UHGV virus genome: UHGV-0068847
Strand: one strand, 5' to 3'
Length of the DNA: 27,295 bases
Source of the DNA: a virus
The translations under genes were made by a program, and so were the position numbers. Below are positions 1 to 18,227 of the stretch, piece after piece. Each line of letters begins with the position of its first letter. Within the stretch, counting starts at the first letter, position 1. The notes under the pieces are model-generated. The model was given only the letters and a program-made list of their open reading frames with translations, had not been told where the DNA came from and did no database searches.

Positions 1-1149
1 TTACCCCGTTTTTACCCCAACAACGACCCAGTCTTTCCCTCGATCGTCGTTATACTTATCCGTCATTTTTCTGGACTTGTGCCCCAGCAGTTTCTGAGTA
101 TCCAGACCCTGTTCACGATACAGTCGCTCCGATAAAGAACGCTGTTCATGGAAAGTTGGGGGCGTACCGTTTTTCCACTCTAGGCCGCTTTTGTCTCTGG
201 CTTTTTTAAAAGTGGATGTCAGGCAGCTGCTCGACACTCGATCACCTCTATTGGCCTGGGATGTGGTGTGCCTGAAATGGACAAGATATTTACTGACAAC
301 CGCATCCCGACATTTTGAAATAACATCCCTGAGAGTGAGGCCCAGCACCTCGCATCTAAGATCTAACGGAATAGCCAGACGAGAACCTGTTTTTTCCTGC
401 TCGATATGGAGCATGTCATCCCATACATCGGTGAATTTCATATTGCATATATCACCAAGACGCTGACCAGTGATTAGGGCTAATAACATGCCACACTGAA
501 GATAAGGCTGCTGCTGTTCCGCCGTCTTATAAATAACACTCCATTCATCAAAGGAAAGACGCTGCCTTGTTATTCTATTTCTCGGTTGCTTAGTGGCTTG
601 CGCCGGATTGTATCCGGGGGCAACGTGTCCGGCATGTTGCGCCTCTTTAAAAACATCGATGAGCACCATTCTAACTACCTGAGCCATGCGATTGTGGCCT
701 TCGGCTTTAATGGCATCAGTTATTTCTGCAATATCGAGAGCTGAAATATCCTTTAGATGCTGCAGGCCGCAGTGTTCTCTGAATAAACGGACAGGCTTAC
801 CTTTTTGAAGAAAGGAGTTTGGTTTAAGCTCGTTATTTTTAAGCCTTTCCTCCTGAATGCCTATGTATTTATCGAGCCACTCAGTAACCGTAATATCAGT
901 GCGCCTGCCTTTCATCCGTGCCAGGCGATCATTCACGCTCAAGATCTGCCTAGTTCGCTGTTCAGCTATGATTATGTTAGCTTCTGTGGCGACTTGTTTA
1001 GCCTCGGATTCATCGGTTCCAAGGCTGTGAAAACGACCTGAAATAGGATGTTTATATTGCCAATATACCTTACCGGTGCGCTTATCCAATTTGCAGTACA
1101 GGTTAGGGATTGGTATTTTGTGAGTGCGTGGTCTAGCAGCCATCAGCAA
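1..1149 (-). CDS. int: Tyrosine recombinase / phage integrase
   Basis: 382-aa ORF with typical lambda-family integrase layout; stop codon is at 1..3; overlaps the upstream xis-like ORF by 17 nt as in lambda xis-int. Confidence 0.85.
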   Translation of the reverse strand: MLMAARPRTHKIPIPNLYCKLDKRTGKVYWQYKHPISGRFHSLGTDESEAKQVATEANIIIAEQRTRQILSVNDRLARMKGRRTDITVTEWLDKYIGIQEERLKNNELKPNSFLQKGKPVRLFREHCGLQHLKDISALDIAEITDAIKAEGHNRMAQVVRMVLIDVFKEAQHAGHVAPGYNPAQATKQPRNRITRQRLSFDEWSVIYKTAEQQQPYLQCGMLLALITGQRLGDICNMKFTDVWDDMLHIEQEKTGSRLAIPLDLRCEVLGLTLRDVISKCRDAVVSKYLVHFRHTTSQANRGDRVSSSCLTSTFKKARDKSGLEWKNGTPPTFHEQRSLSERLYREQGLDTQKLLGHKSRKMTDKYNDDRGKDWVVVGVKTG

Positions 1150-6448: not shown

Positions 6449-7108
6449 TTAAATGTTTTGAGTGATTTGTACAACTTTTCCGACAATGCGACAGTTACCA
6501 TCAATTTGGATTGGCTTAAATAACGGATTCAGTGGCATTAGGTATGAGTAGGGGCTATCCCAAACTAATTTTTTAACCGTTGCTTCTGATGTCCCATCCA
6601 ATATAGCAACGACTATTTTCCCATATAGATCATCAAGCTGCCCATAATGGGGCTCGACTATAACAATAGAACCTTCTGGTATAGATGGAAGTCCTTGCGG
6701 GTTAGTCATCGACTCACCGCGGACTACTAACCCAAACGCTTCATCCGATACATTTGCAGTTGTTTGAGTCCAGGAAATCACGTCTGTAAGTCTTGAGCAG
6801 GCATAGCTATCCGTCCATAAACCGGCTTGAACTGCCGATATGATCGGTACAGCTACAGGGGGTTTCAAAAAAGGCACGACGCGCGTGTCGTCAATGGCCT
6901 CATCACCGCTTCCATAGAGTATCCACTCTGGTGTTGTTGATAGAGCCTGAGCCAACTGGTGAAGGTTCTCACCATCAGGCTTTGTCGTGCCGTTTTCCCA
7001 TTTTGTAACCGATACACGGCTTACACCAAGCTTTTTAGCCAGTGCTAATTGGGTTATATCCAGCTGGATTCGTCTGGATCTGATGCGGTCTTTCATCTCT
7101 GTTTTCAT
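6449..7108 (-). CDS. cI: CI-like repressor (HTH plus S24/LexA-type peptidase domain)
   Basis: N-terminal HTH (ITQLALAKKLGVSRVSVTKWENG), C-terminal GESM serine motif and downstream Lys; divergent from the cro-like gene across the operator region. Confidence 0.85.
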   Translation of the reverse strand: MKTEMKDRIRSRRIQLDITQLALAKKLGVSRVSVTKWENGTTKPDGENLHQLAQALSTTPEWILYGSGDEAIDDTRVVPFLKPPVAVPIISAVQAGLWTDSYACSRLTDVISWTQTTANVSDEAFGLVVRGESMTNPQGLPSIPEGSIVIVEPHYGQLDDLYGKIVVAILDGTSEATVKKLVWDSPYSYLMPLNPLFKPIQIDGNCRIVGKVVQITQNI

Positions 7109-7116
7109 GTAACCAA

Positions 7117-7176
7117 TGTTACACCCTTTGCTTGTAACTGTTGTTTGCTATTTAATGTACCTTTTGTTACCTTTGG
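7117..7176. promoter_or_regulatory. Putative right operator / divergent promoter region
   Basis: Palindrome GTTACAccctttgctTGTAAC (~7117-7138) and the repeat ATGTACCTTTTGTTACCTTTG (~7155-7175) between cI and cro. Confidence 0.5.
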
Positions 7177-7200
7177 TTCATTCATCACACCGGAGGAACT

Positions 7201-7404
7201 ATGTATAAGTCCGAAGTCGTAAAGCATTTTGGCGGTATCTCTAAAACCGCTGTTGCTTTGAATATCTCACACCCTGCCGTATGTCGTTGGGGAAAGGTCA
7301 TCCCTGAGAAGCAAGCCTTCGTAATAGAGAGAATTACTAATGGGAAACTTAAGTATGACGCATCCCTATATCACAAGGTTACAGGCGTATCTGCTAACCA
7401 GTAA
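7201..7404 (+). CDS. cro: Cro/YdaS-like HTH regulator
   Basis: 67-aa ORF with GGAGG RBS, directly right of the operators and divergent from cI; HTH-like segment ISKTAVALNISHPAVCRWGK. Confidence 0.7.
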   Translation: MYKSEVVKHFGGISKTAVALNISHPAVCRWGKVIPEKQAFVIERITNGKLKYDASLYHKVTGVSANQ

Positions 7405-7426
7405 CCACAGGAAAAAGGAGTAAGCC

Positions 7427-7978
7427 GTGGGTAACGAACCTATTTGGAAAGTCGAACGTCAGCCAGCCTGGCTGGTAGCGGCGATAAAAAAAACGATCAC
7501 CGATCTACCTGGTGGTTATGCCGAGGCGGCGGAATGGTTGGGCGTGACAGAGAACGCATTGTTTAACCGCCTTCGTGTTGACGGCGACCAGATCTTCCCA
7601 CTGGGCTGGGCAATGGTTTTACAACGTGCTGGTGGTTCAACTCATATCGCTGATGCCGTTGCGCGCCATTCTCAGGGCGTATTTGTACCACTGGCAGATG
7701 TTGATGATCTGGATAACGCCGATATAAATCAGCGCCTGATGGAGTCCATCGAATGGATAGGCCGTCATTCGAATTTTGTACGTAAAGCCACGGCTGATGG
7801 GGTAATTGACGCAGATGAGCGTGGTCAGATTGAGGAAAACAGCTATCAGGTTATCGCTAAGTTCCAGGAGCACGTAACGCTTCTGTATCGAGTTTTTTGT
7901 GTCGCTGAAAAGAGTGACGCCCGCGAGTGTGCAGCTCCGGGCGCCTTGGCGAACAACTCTTCGAGTATGGAGAAATAA
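7427..7978 (+). CDS. CII-like / YdaT-like early regulatory protein
   Basis: 183-aa ORF with GTG start preceded by AAGGAG; occupies the cII position after cro; family assignment is tentative. Confidence 0.45.
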   Translation: MGNEPIWKVERQPAWLVAAIKKTITDLPGGYAEAAEWLGVTENALFNRLRVDGDQIFPLGWAMVLQRAGGSTHIADAVARHSQGVFVPLADVDDLDNADINQRLMESIEWIGRHSNFVRKATADGVIDADERGQIEENSYQVIAKFQEHVTLLYRVFCVAEKSDARECAAPGALANNSSSMEK

Positions 7979-8150
7979 TCCGCATGAGCAGTTTAACGGC
8001 TTTTGACCGTCTACCGCAACTCAGGATGATCCCGGTTTCGGGTACTCCGTTGTTTCGGTATGAACGCAGATTATCAAACCGCTGGGTTCCGTGTAACCAC
8101 AGTAGGGCGGTTTCAATTGTGGGGGTCTACAACCGGAGGGCAAAACGCCT

Positions 8151-8330
8151 GTGCGCGAACTTAATCGAAGGTTCAAAGACAACCGCGGAGTGCCAGTCCG
8201 TGTTATCCGCTGGGAGCCAGAAACACAGCGCGTTATCTATCTGCGTGATGGCTACCCGCACGAATGCTTCAGCCCACTTGAGCATTTCAGGCAAAAGTTC
8301 AGGGAGATAACGGACGATCATGAGCACTAA
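8151..8330 (+). CDS. Candidate small protein (59 aa, GTG start)
   Basis: Hand-translated VRELNRRFKDNRGVPVRVIRWEPETQRVIYLRDGYPHECFSPLEHFRQKFREITDDHEH; GGAGG 9 nt upstream; ends overlapping the next start; competes with the Ser/Arg-rich ORF 7984..8310. Confidence 0.3.
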   Translation: MRELNRRFKDNRGVPVRVIRWEPETQRVIYLRDGYPHECFSPLEHFRQKFREITDDHEH

Positions 8331-9186
8331 ATTAACCGGCTACGTATGGGATGGTTGCGCAGCGTCGGGCATGAAGTTGTCTAGTGTCGCGATCATGGCT
8401 CGCCTTGCTGATTTCAGCAGCGATGAAGGTGTGTGCTGGCCGTCCATTGAAACTATTGCTCGCCAGCTTGGCGCAGGGCCGAGCACTATCAGAACGGCAA
8501 TCGCAAAGCTTGAAAAAGATGGCTGGCTCACGCGCACACAGCGCCGTAATGGTAACCGTAATGCTTCGAACGTGTACCGCCTGAATGTGGCGAAACTTCA
8601 GGCTGCCGCATTTTCTCAACTGTCAGATTCTGACACGTCAAAATCTGACGCATCAAAATTTGACGCCTCAAAAACTGACCCGTCGAAATCTGGCAAAAAC
8701 GGCGGTTTTGACCCGTCAGAATCTGGCGGGGATCCGTCAGTAAAATCAACACAAGATCCACAAGTAACTTCAAAACCCTCTTGTCCGGTTGCGGCGCAAC
8801 CCGACCCTGAGATTGTGATTACTGATCAGGCCAGACAGGTTTTGTCTTACCTGAACCAGACAACTGGTTCACGCTATCAGGTATGCAGCACGTCGCTGGA
8901 GAACATTCGTGCCCGTCTGCGGGAACGGTTCACTGTTGATGATCTGTGCCTTGTGGTGGATTACAAAAACGCTGATTGGCGTGATAGCGAGCAGGCTCAA
9001 TATCTCCGTCCGGCAACTCTGTTTATTCCAAAAAACTTCCCTGGTTACCTGCAAAGCGCGACCAAATGGTCTGCCGCTGGGCGACCTGAGCGCGTTAACG
9101 GTAAATGGACGGCTAACTCAGCCAGCCGCGCAAGCTTCCAAAATGTTGACTACTCACTTCCAGAACATTCGGGGTTCCGCTCATGA
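8320..9186 (+). CDS. Replication initiator-like protein (N-terminal HTH, phage conserved C-terminal domain)
   Basis: N-terminal HTH-like region; central low-complexity S/D/K repeat encoded by the iterons; position after cII-like as in lambda O. Confidence 0.55.
   Translation: MSTKLTGYVWDGCAASGMKLSSVAIMARLADFSSDEGVCWPSIETIARQLGAGPSTIRTAIAKLEKDGWLTRTQRRNGNRNASNVYRLNVAKLQAAAFSQLSDSDTSKSDASKFDASKTDPSKSGKNGGFDPSESGGDPSVKSTQDPQVTSKPSCPVAAQPDPEIVITDQARQVLSYLNQTTGSRYQVCSTSLENIRARLRERFTVDDLCLVVDYKNADWRDSEQAQYLRPATLFIPKNFPGYLQSATKWSAAGRPERVNGKWTANSASRASFQNVDYSLPEHSGFRS
8621..8723. repeat. Tandem 15-bp iterons (putative replication origin) inside the initiator gene
   Basis: TGACACGTCAAAATC, TGACGCATCAAAATT, TGACGCCTCAAAAAC, TGACCCGTCGAAATC in tandem at 8631-8690, with degenerate copies at 8621-8630 and 8709-8723. 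Confidence 0.55.
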
Positions 9187-10064
9187 TGCCAAATAAATAT
9201 TGCCAGTCGCTGGCAGAACTGCGCAGTAAACCAGCTCACGAATTGAAAGAAGTTGGCGATCAGTGGCGAACACCGGATCTGCTGTTTTGGGGGATCAACG
9301 CGCTATTTGGTCCATTAGTTCTGGATTTGTTTGCTGACGACGACAACGCGAAATGCCCGGCATGGTACACCGCCGAAGATAACGCGCTGACCCAGGACTG
9401 GTCTGAACGTCTGGCAGAACTGGGTGGCGCAGGTTATGGCAACCCACCGTATAGCCGTTCGCAGTACCACGAGAAACAGGCGATCACTGGTATGACGCAC
9501 ATCATGAAGTACGCAGCAGCCCAGTGCGAGAAGGGCGGTCGCTATGTATTCCTGATAAAAGCCGCGCCAAGTGAAACGTGGTGGCCGGAAGATGCCGATC
9601 ACATTGTATTCATTCGCGGGCGCATTGGGTTCGATCTGCCAGTGTGGTTTGTACCTGCTGACGAAAAACAGAAGCCCACCAGCGCGTTTTTTGCCGGTGC
9701 CATAGCTGTATTCGATAAGTCATGGCGTGGTGAGCGGTTCAGCTATATCAACCGCACAGAACTGGAGGCAAAAGGTCGGGCATTTATGGCGCTGGCTCAA
9801 TTCGCTGTTGGCAAAGAGCCGACAATTGCAATGCGAGCACCCCAGGAGCCAGTCATACCATCGGAAACTGAGTCACGTATCTGGCCTCTCGAGGTTGGTC
9901 TGGTGTTTAACCAGGTGGAAGGCGTTGACGTATTGAGTGAGGCTCAGCAGAACAAGCTGAAAGCCAACATCAATCAACTCTGGCTGGAACGAACGGCCAC
10001 CAGCGAAATTATCACAATTGCGCGTGGTCTTGTCGGCAGCATGCAGGGGGTAACCCATGCGTGA
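9183..10064 (+). CDS. Dam-family DNA N6-adenine methyltransferase
   Basis: NPPY catalytic motif (GYGNPPYSRS) and phage Dam-like N-terminal region (WRTPDLLFWGINALFGP). Confidence 0.8.
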   Translation: MMPNKYCQSLAELRSKPAHELKEVGDQWRTPDLLFWGINALFGPLVLDLFADDDNAKCPAWYTAEDNALTQDWSERLAELGGAGYGNPPYSRSQYHEKQAITGMTHIMKYAAAQCEKGGRYVFLIKAAPSETWWPEDADHIVFIRGRIGFDLPVWFVPADEKQKPTSAFFAGAIAVFDKSWRGERFSYINRTELEAKGRAFMALAQFAVGKEPTIAMRAPQEPVIPSETESRIWPLEVGLVFNQVEGVDVLSEAQQNKLKANINQLWLERTATSEIITIARGLVGSMQGVTHA

Positions 10065-11946
10065 GATTATCGTTGATAACTTTGCTGGTGGCGGTGGCGC
10101 ATCAACGGGTATTGAACTGGCGATCGGACGCAGCGTGGATATTGCGATCAACCACGACGAAAACGCCATTGCGATGCACAAGACGAATCACCCGGAAACA
10201 CTGCATTACTGCGAATCCGTATTTGACGTGGATCCGGTAGCCGCCACCGGAGGTAATCCTGTCGGCCTGGCATGGTTTAGCCCGGACTGCCGACACTTCT
10301 CGAAGGCAAAAGGCGCCAAGCCTGTGAAAAAAGAGATACGCGGTCTGGCCTGGATTGTTCTGCGTTGGGCACTGGCAAAGCGACCGCGCGTGATGATGCT
10401 GGAGAACGTGGAAGAGTTCAAAACGTGGGGACCGCTATTACCAGCTGAGCCACAAAATCCCAATCTGGTGGGGGATGATTTGGCTGCATTTGTTGGCCCA
10501 GTTATACCGCCTTATGATGCGCAGCGTCCGGATCCGGCACGAGCTGGTGAAACATTTGAGGCATTTGTCGGCATGCTATCCACTGGTATTCCTGCTGATC
10601 ACCCGGCACTGGCTGAGGTTTGTGAGTTTCTGTCTATCGAAAGAGGTAGCGAGCAGGCGCAAAAGCTGGTGGATGGGCTTGGATATGATGTTGATTATCG
10701 CGAACTACGCGCGTGTGATTACGGCGCGCCGACGATCCGCAAACGCTTCTTCATGGTTATGCGCTGCGATGGCTGCCCAATCCAGTGGCCTGCAGTTACC
10801 CATGGGGATCCTAAGTCTCTGGAGGTGCAGAGCGGCAGGCTGATGCCATGGCGTACCGCTGCGGAATGTATCGACTGGAATGTTCCGGCCCTGTCCATCT
10901 TCGACCGCAAAAAAACGCTGGCGGAGAACACGCTGAAGCGGATCGCGCGCGGCATACAGCGCTTTGTTATCGAAAGTGCGTCGCCGTTTATCGTGAAGTG
11001 CAATCACACCAGCACCAAAACGAGTTACGACTGTTTCCGTGGTCAGAAGCTGGACGAGCCTTTGCAAACTATTACTAAAACCCACGGTTACGCGTTAGCT
11101 GTTCCACACCTGACAAAATTCCGCACTGGGGCAACCGGGCAGCCCGTTACCGAACCTGTCCCGACGGTAACCGCTGGCACGTCAAAACGCCCGGGTGGGA
11201 ATGGGCATGCACTCGGGATTGTTGAGGCTGCACTGACGCCATTCCTGGCGGGTAATGGTGGTAGTGAATACCAGGCTAAACCGCGCCCGCTGGATAAACC
11301 TGCTCATACCATTATGAAGCAATCCCGCGCCTGTCTTGTTGCGCCAGTGATAGCCCGCCAGTTTGGGGCCAGCGTCGGCCACCGGGCAGACGAACCGAGC
11401 GCCACAATTACAGCTGGTGGTGGAGGTAAATCACAATTGGTGGGCGCGTTTCTGGCTAAACACTACGGCGGTAACTATACGGGACCGGGTGTCAGTATGG
11501 ATGAACCCGCACACTCAGTGACCACTGTCGATCATCATGCGGTTGTTGCCTCTCATTTGGTGAAACTGCGTGGAACATGCCGCGACGGGCAACGTCTTGA
11601 TGTGCCCATGCCAACAATCACCTCTGGTGGCCAACACGTGGGTGAGGTACGCACATTTCTCGAGACGTATTGCGGGGAAAGTGACGATGAATGGCTGGTA
11701 ACGATCGATGGGGTTAAATACCAGATCGTTGATATCGGAATGCGCATGTTGCAGCCGCATGAACTCTACAAAGCGCAGGGCTTCCCGGATGGATACGTTA
11801 TTGATCAGGACTACCGTGGAAATCGCTATGCAAAAGATAAGCAGGTAGCCCGCTGTGGTAATGCGGTACCACCACCATTCGCCAGGGCGCTGGTGGAGGC
11901 AAATCTTCCGGAACTGTGTGCAGTGCAACATCAGGAGGTGGCATGA
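10057..11946 (+). CDS. DNA cytosine-5 methyltransferase (629 aa)
   Basis: Motif I FAGGGG, ENV, QxRxR-like IRKRFF, GNAV; catalytic Cys lies in SPDCRHFS instead of canonical PCQ; start overlaps the Dam stop. Confidence 0.8.
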   Translation: MREIIVDNFAGGGGASTGIELAIGRSVDIAINHDENAIAMHKTNHPETLHYCESVFDVDPVAATGGNPVGLAWFSPDCRHFSKAKGAKPVKKEIRGLAWIVLRWALAKRPRVMMLENVEEFKTWGPLLPAEPQNPNLVGDDLAAFVGPVIPPYDAQRPDPARAGETFEAFVGMLSTGIPADHPALAEVCEFLSIERGSEQAQKLVDGLGYDVDYRELRACDYGAPTIRKRFFMVMRCDGCPIQWPAVTHGDPKSLEVQSGRLMPWRTAAECIDWNVPALSIFDRKKTLAENTLKRIARGIQRFVIESASPFIVKCNHTSTKTSYDCFRGQKLDEPLQTITKTHGYALAVPHLTKFRTGATGQPVTEPVPTVTAGTSKRPGGNGHALGIVEAALTPFLAGNGGSEYQAKPRPLDKPAHTIMKQSRACLVAPVIARQFGASVGHRADEPSATITAGGGGKSQLVGAFLAKHYGGNYTGPGVSMDEPAHSVTTVDHHAVVASHLVKLRGTCRDGQRLDVPMPTITSGGQHVGEVRTFLETYCGESDDEWLVTIDGVKYQIVDIGMRMLQPHELYKAQGFPDGYVIDQDYRGNRYAKDKQVARCGNAVPPPFARALVEANLPELCAVQHQEVA

Positions 11947-17801: not shown

Positions 17802-18227
17802 TTAACCAACGGTTAATGTGGAAAGCAAATGCGAAGTTTCCCCAGAGCAGTTAACAGTGGTTTCGTTGTAAGGGAATTCACCCGTATACTCGCTATTTGC
17901 AGGGGGAGTCATTTTGTTAATCAATGCAGCTTCTGCGCGCACCCGATCATCTTTTCCAGTAATAGTAGCGACGGAATAGCAGAGAGTCTCACCGACCATT
18001 AAATGTTCATTCCAGTCACCCAGCCTGTCGTGCGTGGCCACACGGGATCGGACGTTCGATGATTCGCCGATATAAATCAACTTACGAATTTCGAGTGTTG
18101 TCTTGGAGCCATTAGTAACAGCTTTGCATGCGTATACGCAGTAGATTCCTGACTGATCTGGAACGCCACTCTTATTGGCTTCACGCCAATACCCATCAAA
18201 TTGCAGATTAATTGTTTTACCAGTCAT
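17802..18227 (-). CDS. Standalone GIY-YIG nuclease-domain protein (141 aa)
   Basis: SGIYCVY ... LIYIGESSNVRSRVATH ... RVRAEAALINKMTPPAN matches the GIY / YIG / Arg / Glu...Asn motif series. Confidence 0.55.
   Translation of the reverse strand: MTGKTINLQFDGYWREANKSGVPDQSGIYCVYACKAVTNGSKTTLEIRKLIYIGESSNVRSRVATHDRLGDWNEHLMVGETLCYSVATITGKDDRVRAEAALINKMTPPANSEYTGEFPYNETTVNCSGETSHLLSTLTVG

Follow-up and report, generated by a model that had tools for sequence, protein, structure and literature searches.

Gene neighbourhood of the repeats

The DNA analysed here is a stretch of 27,295 nucleotides from the virus genome UHGV-0068847 (hereafter the window). It is a lambda-like, temperate (pro)phage of Citrobacter/Escherichia. 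Citrobacter freundii and related enterobacteria supply its best protein matches, and 2752 of 5426 complete E. coli genomes matched some part of positions 7000-10100 in a megablast comparison. The genes that define the region are:

1-1149, minus strand: integrase
6449-7108, minus strand: cI-type repressor
7201-7404: cro
7427-7978: cII/YmfL-like gene
8151-8330, plus strand: DUF4222 open reading frame (ORF; Pfam DUF4222, E = 4e-17)
8320-9186, plus strand: initiator gene holding the repeats (288 amino acids)
9183-10064, plus strand: Dam-like N6-adenine methyltransferase
10057-11946, plus strand: C5 methyltransferase (629 amino acids)

The genes 3' of the methyltransferases encode RusA, an anti-repressor, a Q-like antiterminator, lysis proteins, terminase, portal and protease. 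The annotated ORFs of the 27-kb window were found to include neither a loader nor a helicase. The Dam-like and C5 methyltransferase genes lie directly 3' of the initiator, at the position of the loader gene P in lambda, and the window carries a third DNA methyltransferase gene at 1717-2238 on the minus strand. The DUF4222 ORF and the start of the initiator gene share 11 nt. Matches in E. coli chromosomes and in plasmids have this ORF annotated next to the initiator as well, and it is possibly an accessory of the replication module. The matches in a plasmid collection are prophages in megaplasmids or phage-sized 'plasmids', with no characterised replicon among them, and a paper on pIGRK proved to be unrelated. 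Between the lysis and terminase genes, a 141-amino-acid ORF (17802-18227, minus strand) had no PHROG match and is possibly a moron (cargo gene).

Domains of the initiator protein

The initiator gene encodes two domains joined by a linker:

Amino acids ~1-97: N-terminal winged-helix domain (Pfam HTH_36, E = 8.5e-12, match at amino acids 23-70)
Amino acids ~98-160: low-complexity linker
About amino acids 172-245: C-terminal Phg_2220_C domain (Pfam, E = 1.7e-25)

Both halves of this HTH_36 + Phg_2220_C/TIGR02220 architecture were recovered above the curated cut-offs, with the TIGR02220 match in the C-terminal domain. The N-terminal domain gave weaker matches to GntR, MarR and DnaD_N, and the protein matched PHROG 11896, 428 and 391, which are annotated as primosomal or O-like replication initiation proteins. 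A putative recognition helix was assigned by its position in the HTH_36 match. In a sequence search against solved structures, the initiator returned only marginal MarR/PaaX winged-helix matches (E of at least 0.026), and lambda O returned nothing. When the C-terminal domain was scanned against Pfam at E ≤ 10 for relatives of DnaD/DnaB_2 or DnaT, only Phg_2220_C was found. An AlphaFold model, whose input alignment was shallow and contained only sequences of 81% identity or more, had a mean pLDDT of 48. In this overall poor model amino acids 97-158 appear unstructured, with a pLDDT of about 30, which suggests that the linker is probably disordered.

The initiator ends in a conserved tail, ...VDYS-x-(I/L/V)P-x-GFR(G/S), at amino acids 276-288 (window positions 9145-9183). 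The same tail occurs in proteins P0173, P0181, P0193, P0202, P0211, L001 and L262, so that it is found at or near the initiator end across three unrelated types of C-terminal domain. The phiP27 protein L17, with its own DnaC-like loader and DnaB encoded behind it, lacks the tail. Possibly the tail serves as a short recruitment motif for a host replication factor.

Iteron array

Tandem Repeats Finder detected an array with a 15-bp period at 8629-8692 (4.3 copies, 79% matches, score 79). Allowing at most one mismatch, the motif TGACNCNTCRAAA matched the window seven times against 1.07 expected, a number reached in none of 100 shuffles. Hence, the tandem repeats noted in the original prediction are real and their 15-bp period was correct, but at about 79% similarity between units 'near-perfect' overstates them. 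Six of the seven matches fall within 8631-8721. The remaining one, with one mismatch, is isolated at 11175, leaving no second site cluster in the 27-kb window, nor did Tandem Repeats Finder detect another substantial repeat array there.

The informative register of the array is a 13-bp dyad, GTCA-N5-TGAC, plus a 2-bp spacer. Six such sites, with the consensus GTCAAAATCTGAC, start at 8622, 8637, 8652, 8667, 8682 and 8715 and together span 8622-8727. The array and the elements to its right are:

8622-8694: five contiguous iterons with a 15-bp period (GTCAGATTCTGAC, GTCAAAATCTGAC, ATCAAAATTTGAC, CTCAAAAACTGAC, GTCGAAATCTGGC)
8715-8727: sixth iteron, 33 bp after the fifth (GTCAGAATCTGGC)
8731-8754 and 8755-8778: two 24-bp direct repeats, each starting with GATCC (GATCCGTCAGTAAAATCAACACAA and GATCCACAAGTAACTTCAAAACCC)
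8783-8805: GC-rich palindrome at the right edge of the constrained zone (GTCCGGTTGCG and CGCAACCCGAC)

Sites 1 and 6 are nearest to the perfect palindrome GTCAGAWTCTGAC. The sixth site is preceded by an inverted half-site, TTTTGAC, at 8706-8712. Its centre, CAGAATCTGG, is kept in all subfamilies of the initiator, and its flanks track the iteron type of each subfamily. In the gene frame the array encodes the peptide SDSDT-SKSDA-SKFDA-SKTDP-SKSGK, in agreement with the predicted S/D/K pentapeptides within the initiator ORF. The iterons occupy gene nt 303-408 of 867 (35-47%), between the HTH_36 and Phg_2220_C domains. The constrained feature is larger than the extent first given for the repeats (8621-8723), reaching to about 8608-8805 and including the GATCC repeats and the palindrome.

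Elements flanking the iterons

The two 24-bp GATCC repeats agree at 16 of 24 positions; of the adjacent 24-mer pairs in the window, only 0.015% do as well. The least stable 40-mer of the initiator gene falls in this stretch and ranks in approximately the top 5% of the window for instability. The repeats are A-rich, but with 62% AT (over 8735-8782) they are much weaker than a classical AT-rich region. Of 146 unique relatives, covering all iteron types, 143 contain the first GATCC element, GATCCNYCAGTA, and 103 have a second GATC at +24. We therefore consider the GATCC repeats at 8731-8778 a candidate DNA-unwinding element, since subfamilies that differ in specificity have this element in common, which is easier to reconcile with a role in unwinding or loading than with recognition by one particular initiator. 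The GATC pair at 8731/8755 is itself conserved within the candidate element, which suggests a possible tie to methylation.

In 94% of the relatives, as compared to 11% of shuffles, the position of the palindrome is occupied by an inverted repeat whose perfect arms measure at least 6 bp. A mosaic breakpoint lies close to the palindrome, with aligned similarity fading by about 8800.

Positions 8300-9200 contain no DnaA box (TTATNCACA) with at most one mismatch. A DnaA-box-like sequence at 8754-8762 (AGATCCACA) was dropped on account of its two mismatches and its lack of conservation among the relatives (TGATCCATC). A scan of Rfam gave no match, and a scan of the array for promoters and terminators gave nothing convincing, the lone promoter-like match (8630-8659) being weak (9/12) and inside the repeats.

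The main use of the initiator sites might instead be to regulate the initiator itself, to control copy number or to exclude related phages, by titration or handcuffing, with the origin located elsewhere. Titration of initiators and inhibition of replication are known for plasmid iterons and lambda ori fragments (PMC3349717, PMC6118388). However, the lack of another site cluster or comparable array argues against a separate origin within the 27-kb window, which is only part of the phage, and the sites are directly flanked by a conserved element of low stability and a palindrome, as an origin would be. We regard this explanation as improbable.

Selection on the DNA of the linker

Sequence variation was studied in 99 relatives with at least 80% identity in the N-terminal domain, of which 87 were unique, after alignment by codon. 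Synonymous heterozygosity dropped from 0.427 in codons 4-97 to 0.091 in codons 98-160 (Mann-Whitney p = 3.5e-17 for the 87 unique relatives), and returned to 0.389 after codon 160. Amino-acid heterozygosity showed the opposite pattern, with 0.231 in the linker versus 0.085 in the folded domain. Low synonymous diversity combined with increased amino-acid diversity implies selection on the DNA rather than on the peptide. The constrained zone extends over approximately 8608-8790 (roughly 190 bp), and synonymous diversity is lowest, at 0.01-0.02, over 8716-8769. Because this minimum lies outside the tandem array, concerted evolution of the repeats cannot explain the constraint.

A matrix of 460 sites from 85 unique relatives revealed that the conserved positions form a dyad, with an invariant TCA...TGA and an A-rich centre. 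It is the spacers separating the sites that vary, regardless of codon position. Two other subfamilies with different repeats clearly show the same synonymous dip; in a third, which has little diversity, it is less pronounced. Lambda O, used as a positive control for the synonymous-site test, had no power, because the 80 loci were 99-100% identical in protein with a third-position heterozygosity of at most 0.10. Lambda O genes less than 93% identical over ori are few in the phage collection. The array offers a clear example of dual coding, in which selection at the DNA level dictates the sequence of a protein linker.

These patterns bear on the idea that the repeats are a low-complexity S/D/K linker made by slippage, with no function at the DNA level. 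The peptide is indeed compositionally simple and disordered-looking in the poor structural model, and close relatives differ in unit number by multiples of 15 bp. Yet synonymous sites within the linker are less free to vary than those of the flanking coding sequence, the opposite of a neutral coding repeat; they are near-invariant, whereas the amino acids vary more than in the folded domain. The conserved positions follow a DNA dyad instead of a codon pattern, and the constraint continues through non-repetitive DNA at 8716-8790. Furthermore, the repeats of other subfamilies always occur at the same place although their peptides differ in both sequence and length. The pattern of constraint in the linker leads us to reject a neutral low-complexity linker, and we consider the slippage explanation highly improbable.

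An RNA element (mRNA structure or antisense RNA) or an overlapping reading frame could also constrain synonymous sites. Both strands of the array fold far better than shuffles (z = -4.1 and -4.7), and open frames cover part of it (the +2 frame at 8585-8743 and the minus strand at 8528-8773). Tandem dyads would, however, be expected to fold in this way, and the pairing partners are not the same at different copy numbers (3-8). The negative Rfam scan and the weakness of the promoter-like match inside the repeats speak against an RNA element as well. None of the alternative frames covers the whole constrained zone, those over gene nt 200-470 contain stops in 98 of 99 relatives, and a second coding frame does not predict dyad-symmetric conservation. 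An RNA element or second frame is accordingly a very improbable source of the constraint.

Co-variation and modular inheritance

The repeats vary in step with the putative recognition helix. All 80 unique genes with the helix motif GAGxST[VI]RT carry CTGAC-NN-TCARA repeats, and all 58 unique genes with GAGRSTVIT carry CTGRAC-NTYCAR repeats. A GAKSESTVKA-type helix goes with TTGAC-N3-TCAA repeats. Type-B repeats have the sequence GTTCAGAATCTGGAC. No cross-pairings occurred among the callable genes, and for nine genes the pattern matches were too few to assign a repeat type. Physical linkage and shared ancestry confound this co-variation, which therefore counts as support but not as proof.

Among close relatives, the number of units ranges from 3 to 8, in steps of 15 bp, and the proteins have 283, 288 or 293 amino acids. 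More distant relatives, at 35-70% identity, have short repeats of other kinds in the corresponding part of the gene, and in these other subfamilies the repeat peptides measure 5, 7, 8 or about 20 amino acids and differ in sequence. The genes annotated as 'replication protein O' in phiP27, SfII, SfIV, phiNP and e14-type phages belong to the same initiator family as the gene in the window, as do the genes for the HTH proteins of Eru5/Eru6 Stx phages. Identity to the N-terminal domain of the window initiator is 60-89% in phiP27 and SfII/SfIV-type phages and 35-40% in Eru5/Eru6 phages, and in all of these phages tandem repeats are found at the same gene position. The repeats are 15 bp long in the relative from the Stx2e phage phiP27 and 24 bp long in the relatives from Eru5 and Eru6 Shiga-toxin phages. 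None of the examined phage records of the initiator family carries an origin annotation. For the non-lambda (Eru) Stx phages, to which distant members of the family belong, a 2022 survey states that nothing is known of their replication proteins (PMC8951638).

The downstream partner differs between these phages. In SfIV the initiator is followed by a gene with a PerC domain and in Eru5 by a large 'replication protein'; phiP27 has genes for a DnaC-like loader and for DnaB helicase there. The arrangement in phiP27 supports an initiator role for the HTH_36/Phg_2220_C family, and shows that the unit of N-terminal domain and putative origin combines with different solutions for helicase loading. 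In SfII/SfIV-type phages, megablast homology to the window is limited to gene nt 1-440, and the C-terminal half and the downstream gene differ. Judged from these comparisons, the N-terminal domain and the repeats are inherited as one recombination block, with C-terminal halves and downstream partners being swapped.

For lambdoid phages, the idea that modules are separated by conserved boundary sequences is known, and together with the mosaic breakpoint at the right edge of the zone it would favour a recent recombinational sweep of a shared 'linker sequence' for mosaic module exchange as the cause of the low diversity. A sweep would flatten all variation, however, whereas in this zone the spacers, the unit number and the amino acids (heterozygosity 0.231) vary freely, the iterons of different subfamilies change along with the helix motif and the same dip recurs independently in other subfamilies, which makes this a most improbable cause.

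Comparison with lambda and plasmid origins

In lambda, the ori iterons lie inside gene O, in the flexible-linker sequence between the coding sequences of the DNA-binding N-terminal and the C-terminal domains, and the array in the window is placed likewise. The annotated iterons of lambda occupy gene nt 349-433 of 900 (39-48%), similar to nt 303-408 of 867 in the window (NC_001416). In both cases the iterons have dyad symmetry with A residues between the half-sites, but lambda spaces them by roughly two helical turns and the window by approximately 1.4 (PMC6022878). The original prediction contrasted its 15-bp units with 19-bp units in lambda. The units do differ, although the annotation of lambda gives four units of 18 bp spaced 20-24 bp apart rather than 19-bp tandem units, against six 13-bp sites, five of them at 15-bp spacing, in the window (NC_001416). 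To the right of the iterons, the easily melted region of lambda has a putative counterpart in the two GATCC-led 24-bp repeats with only 62% AT. Moreover, lambda O has a mosaic break at nt 434-471, just after ori, and the family in the window has one near nt 440; in both, the C-terminal half recombines independently of the unit of N-terminal domain and iterons. The predicted lambda-like layout, with iterons inside the initiator gene, is thus borne out by relative position, dyads and co-inheritance of N-terminal domain and repeats.

The proteins themselves are not detectably related. Lambda O matched Phage_rep_O (PF04492) with E = 5.7e-36, whereas the window initiator gave no match to this family at E ≤ 0.01, and a BLASTP comparison of the two proteins gave E = 0.95. 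The label 'O-like' therefore suits the architecture and function of the initiator, but does not extend to detectable homology. The same results support the predicted initiator-iteron specificity distinct from that of lambda. In addition, the P loader gene downstream of O in lambda is replaced in the window by the Dam-like methyltransferase, the C5 methyltransferase and RusA.

Plasmid iterons are normally intergenic, 17-22 bp long and about two helical turns apart, often with DnaA boxes. The iterons in the window are instead located in coding sequence, phased at 15 bp and without DnaA boxes. According to two reviews, theta origins of plasmids with a winged-helix Rep protein, such as R6K pi and RK2 TrfA, contain multiple direct repeats in variable number next to an unwinding element (PMC4980987, PMC5043065). 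The repeats in the window likewise vary in number and adjoin a candidate unwinding element, and presumably are bound by a winged helix.

Proposed origin and its mechanism

The synonymous constraint, the co-variation of helix and repeats, the dyads and the position agree with the original prediction of an origin-type array in the initiator gene. On this comparative evidence, the repeats are very probably the replication origin of a lambda-like prophage, located inside the DNA that encodes the initiator's own flexible linker. It is likely, more specifically, that the linker-coding segment of the phage's own initiator gene serves as a vegetative (theta-type) origin. An origin embedded in the initiator gene is textbook knowledge for lambda, but we found no description of one for the HTH_36/Phg_2220_C family in the searchable literature, where older work in subscription journals may have been missed. 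The searched literature likewise yielded no published binding or initiation data for any member of the initiator family.

This interpretation provides a precise, testable origin of ~190 bp for a replication module that is very common in enterobacterial prophages. Relatives of the module occur in the Shigella serotype-converting phages SfII and SfIV, in the Stx2e phage phiP27 and, more distantly, in Eru5/Eru6 Shiga-toxin phages. For phages with HTH_36-type initiators, a practical rule would be to look for the origin directly behind the winged-helix segment, in the DNA that encodes the linker.

In the proposed mechanism, initiator dimers would bind each dyad site via the winged helix and assemble into a higher-order complex, which would destabilise the adjacent A-rich GATCC repeats. 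We conjecture that the C-terminal domain and/or the conserved tail would then recruit host DnaB, probably with host DnaC, because neither a helicase nor its loader was found among the annotated phage genes. Transcription running rightward from the promoter on the cro side would read through the origin and probably help its activation, as in lambda. The 15-bp phasing corresponds to about 1.4 helical turns, which would place neighbouring dimers on nearly opposite faces of the helix. The higher-order complex may therefore differ from the O-some of lambda.

A more detailed joint reading, which we consider doubtful, combines three elements. Firstly, sites on opposite faces and only 2 bp apart would favour a continuous helical filament over a wrapped O-some. 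Secondly, opening of the origin could be gated by adenine methylation, as suggested by the conserved GATC-led repeats and the Dam-like methyltransferase next door; adenine methylation gates opening at P1 oriR or oriC. Thirdly, in a phage without its own loader the helicase might be recruited through the ...IPxGFRG tail, which is common to otherwise unrelated C-terminal domains.

Additional repeat structures in the window and its relatives

The Stx2a phages F403 and WGPS2 (Eru5/Eru6) carry their 24-bp tandem repeats at L261 2729-2792 and L262 2748-2808. An example of this repeat, GGTGGGGCAGGAGCTGCCCAGG, has an internal dyad, and a second short tandem repeat comes after the array. The repeats of Eru5/Eru6 phages are candidate origins. 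A much longer array is present in one subfamily (L084), at about gene nt 300-600, with a period of ~60 bp and alternating TCTGGAC and TCAGA sub-sites; the encoded protein has 371 amino acids and peptide repeats of about 20 amino acids. In the window, the whole array at 8621-8695 also forms a large imperfect palindrome centred near 8658, with 37-nt arms that are 70% complementary. Hairpins or a cruciform could form in the DNA of the array when it is unwound.
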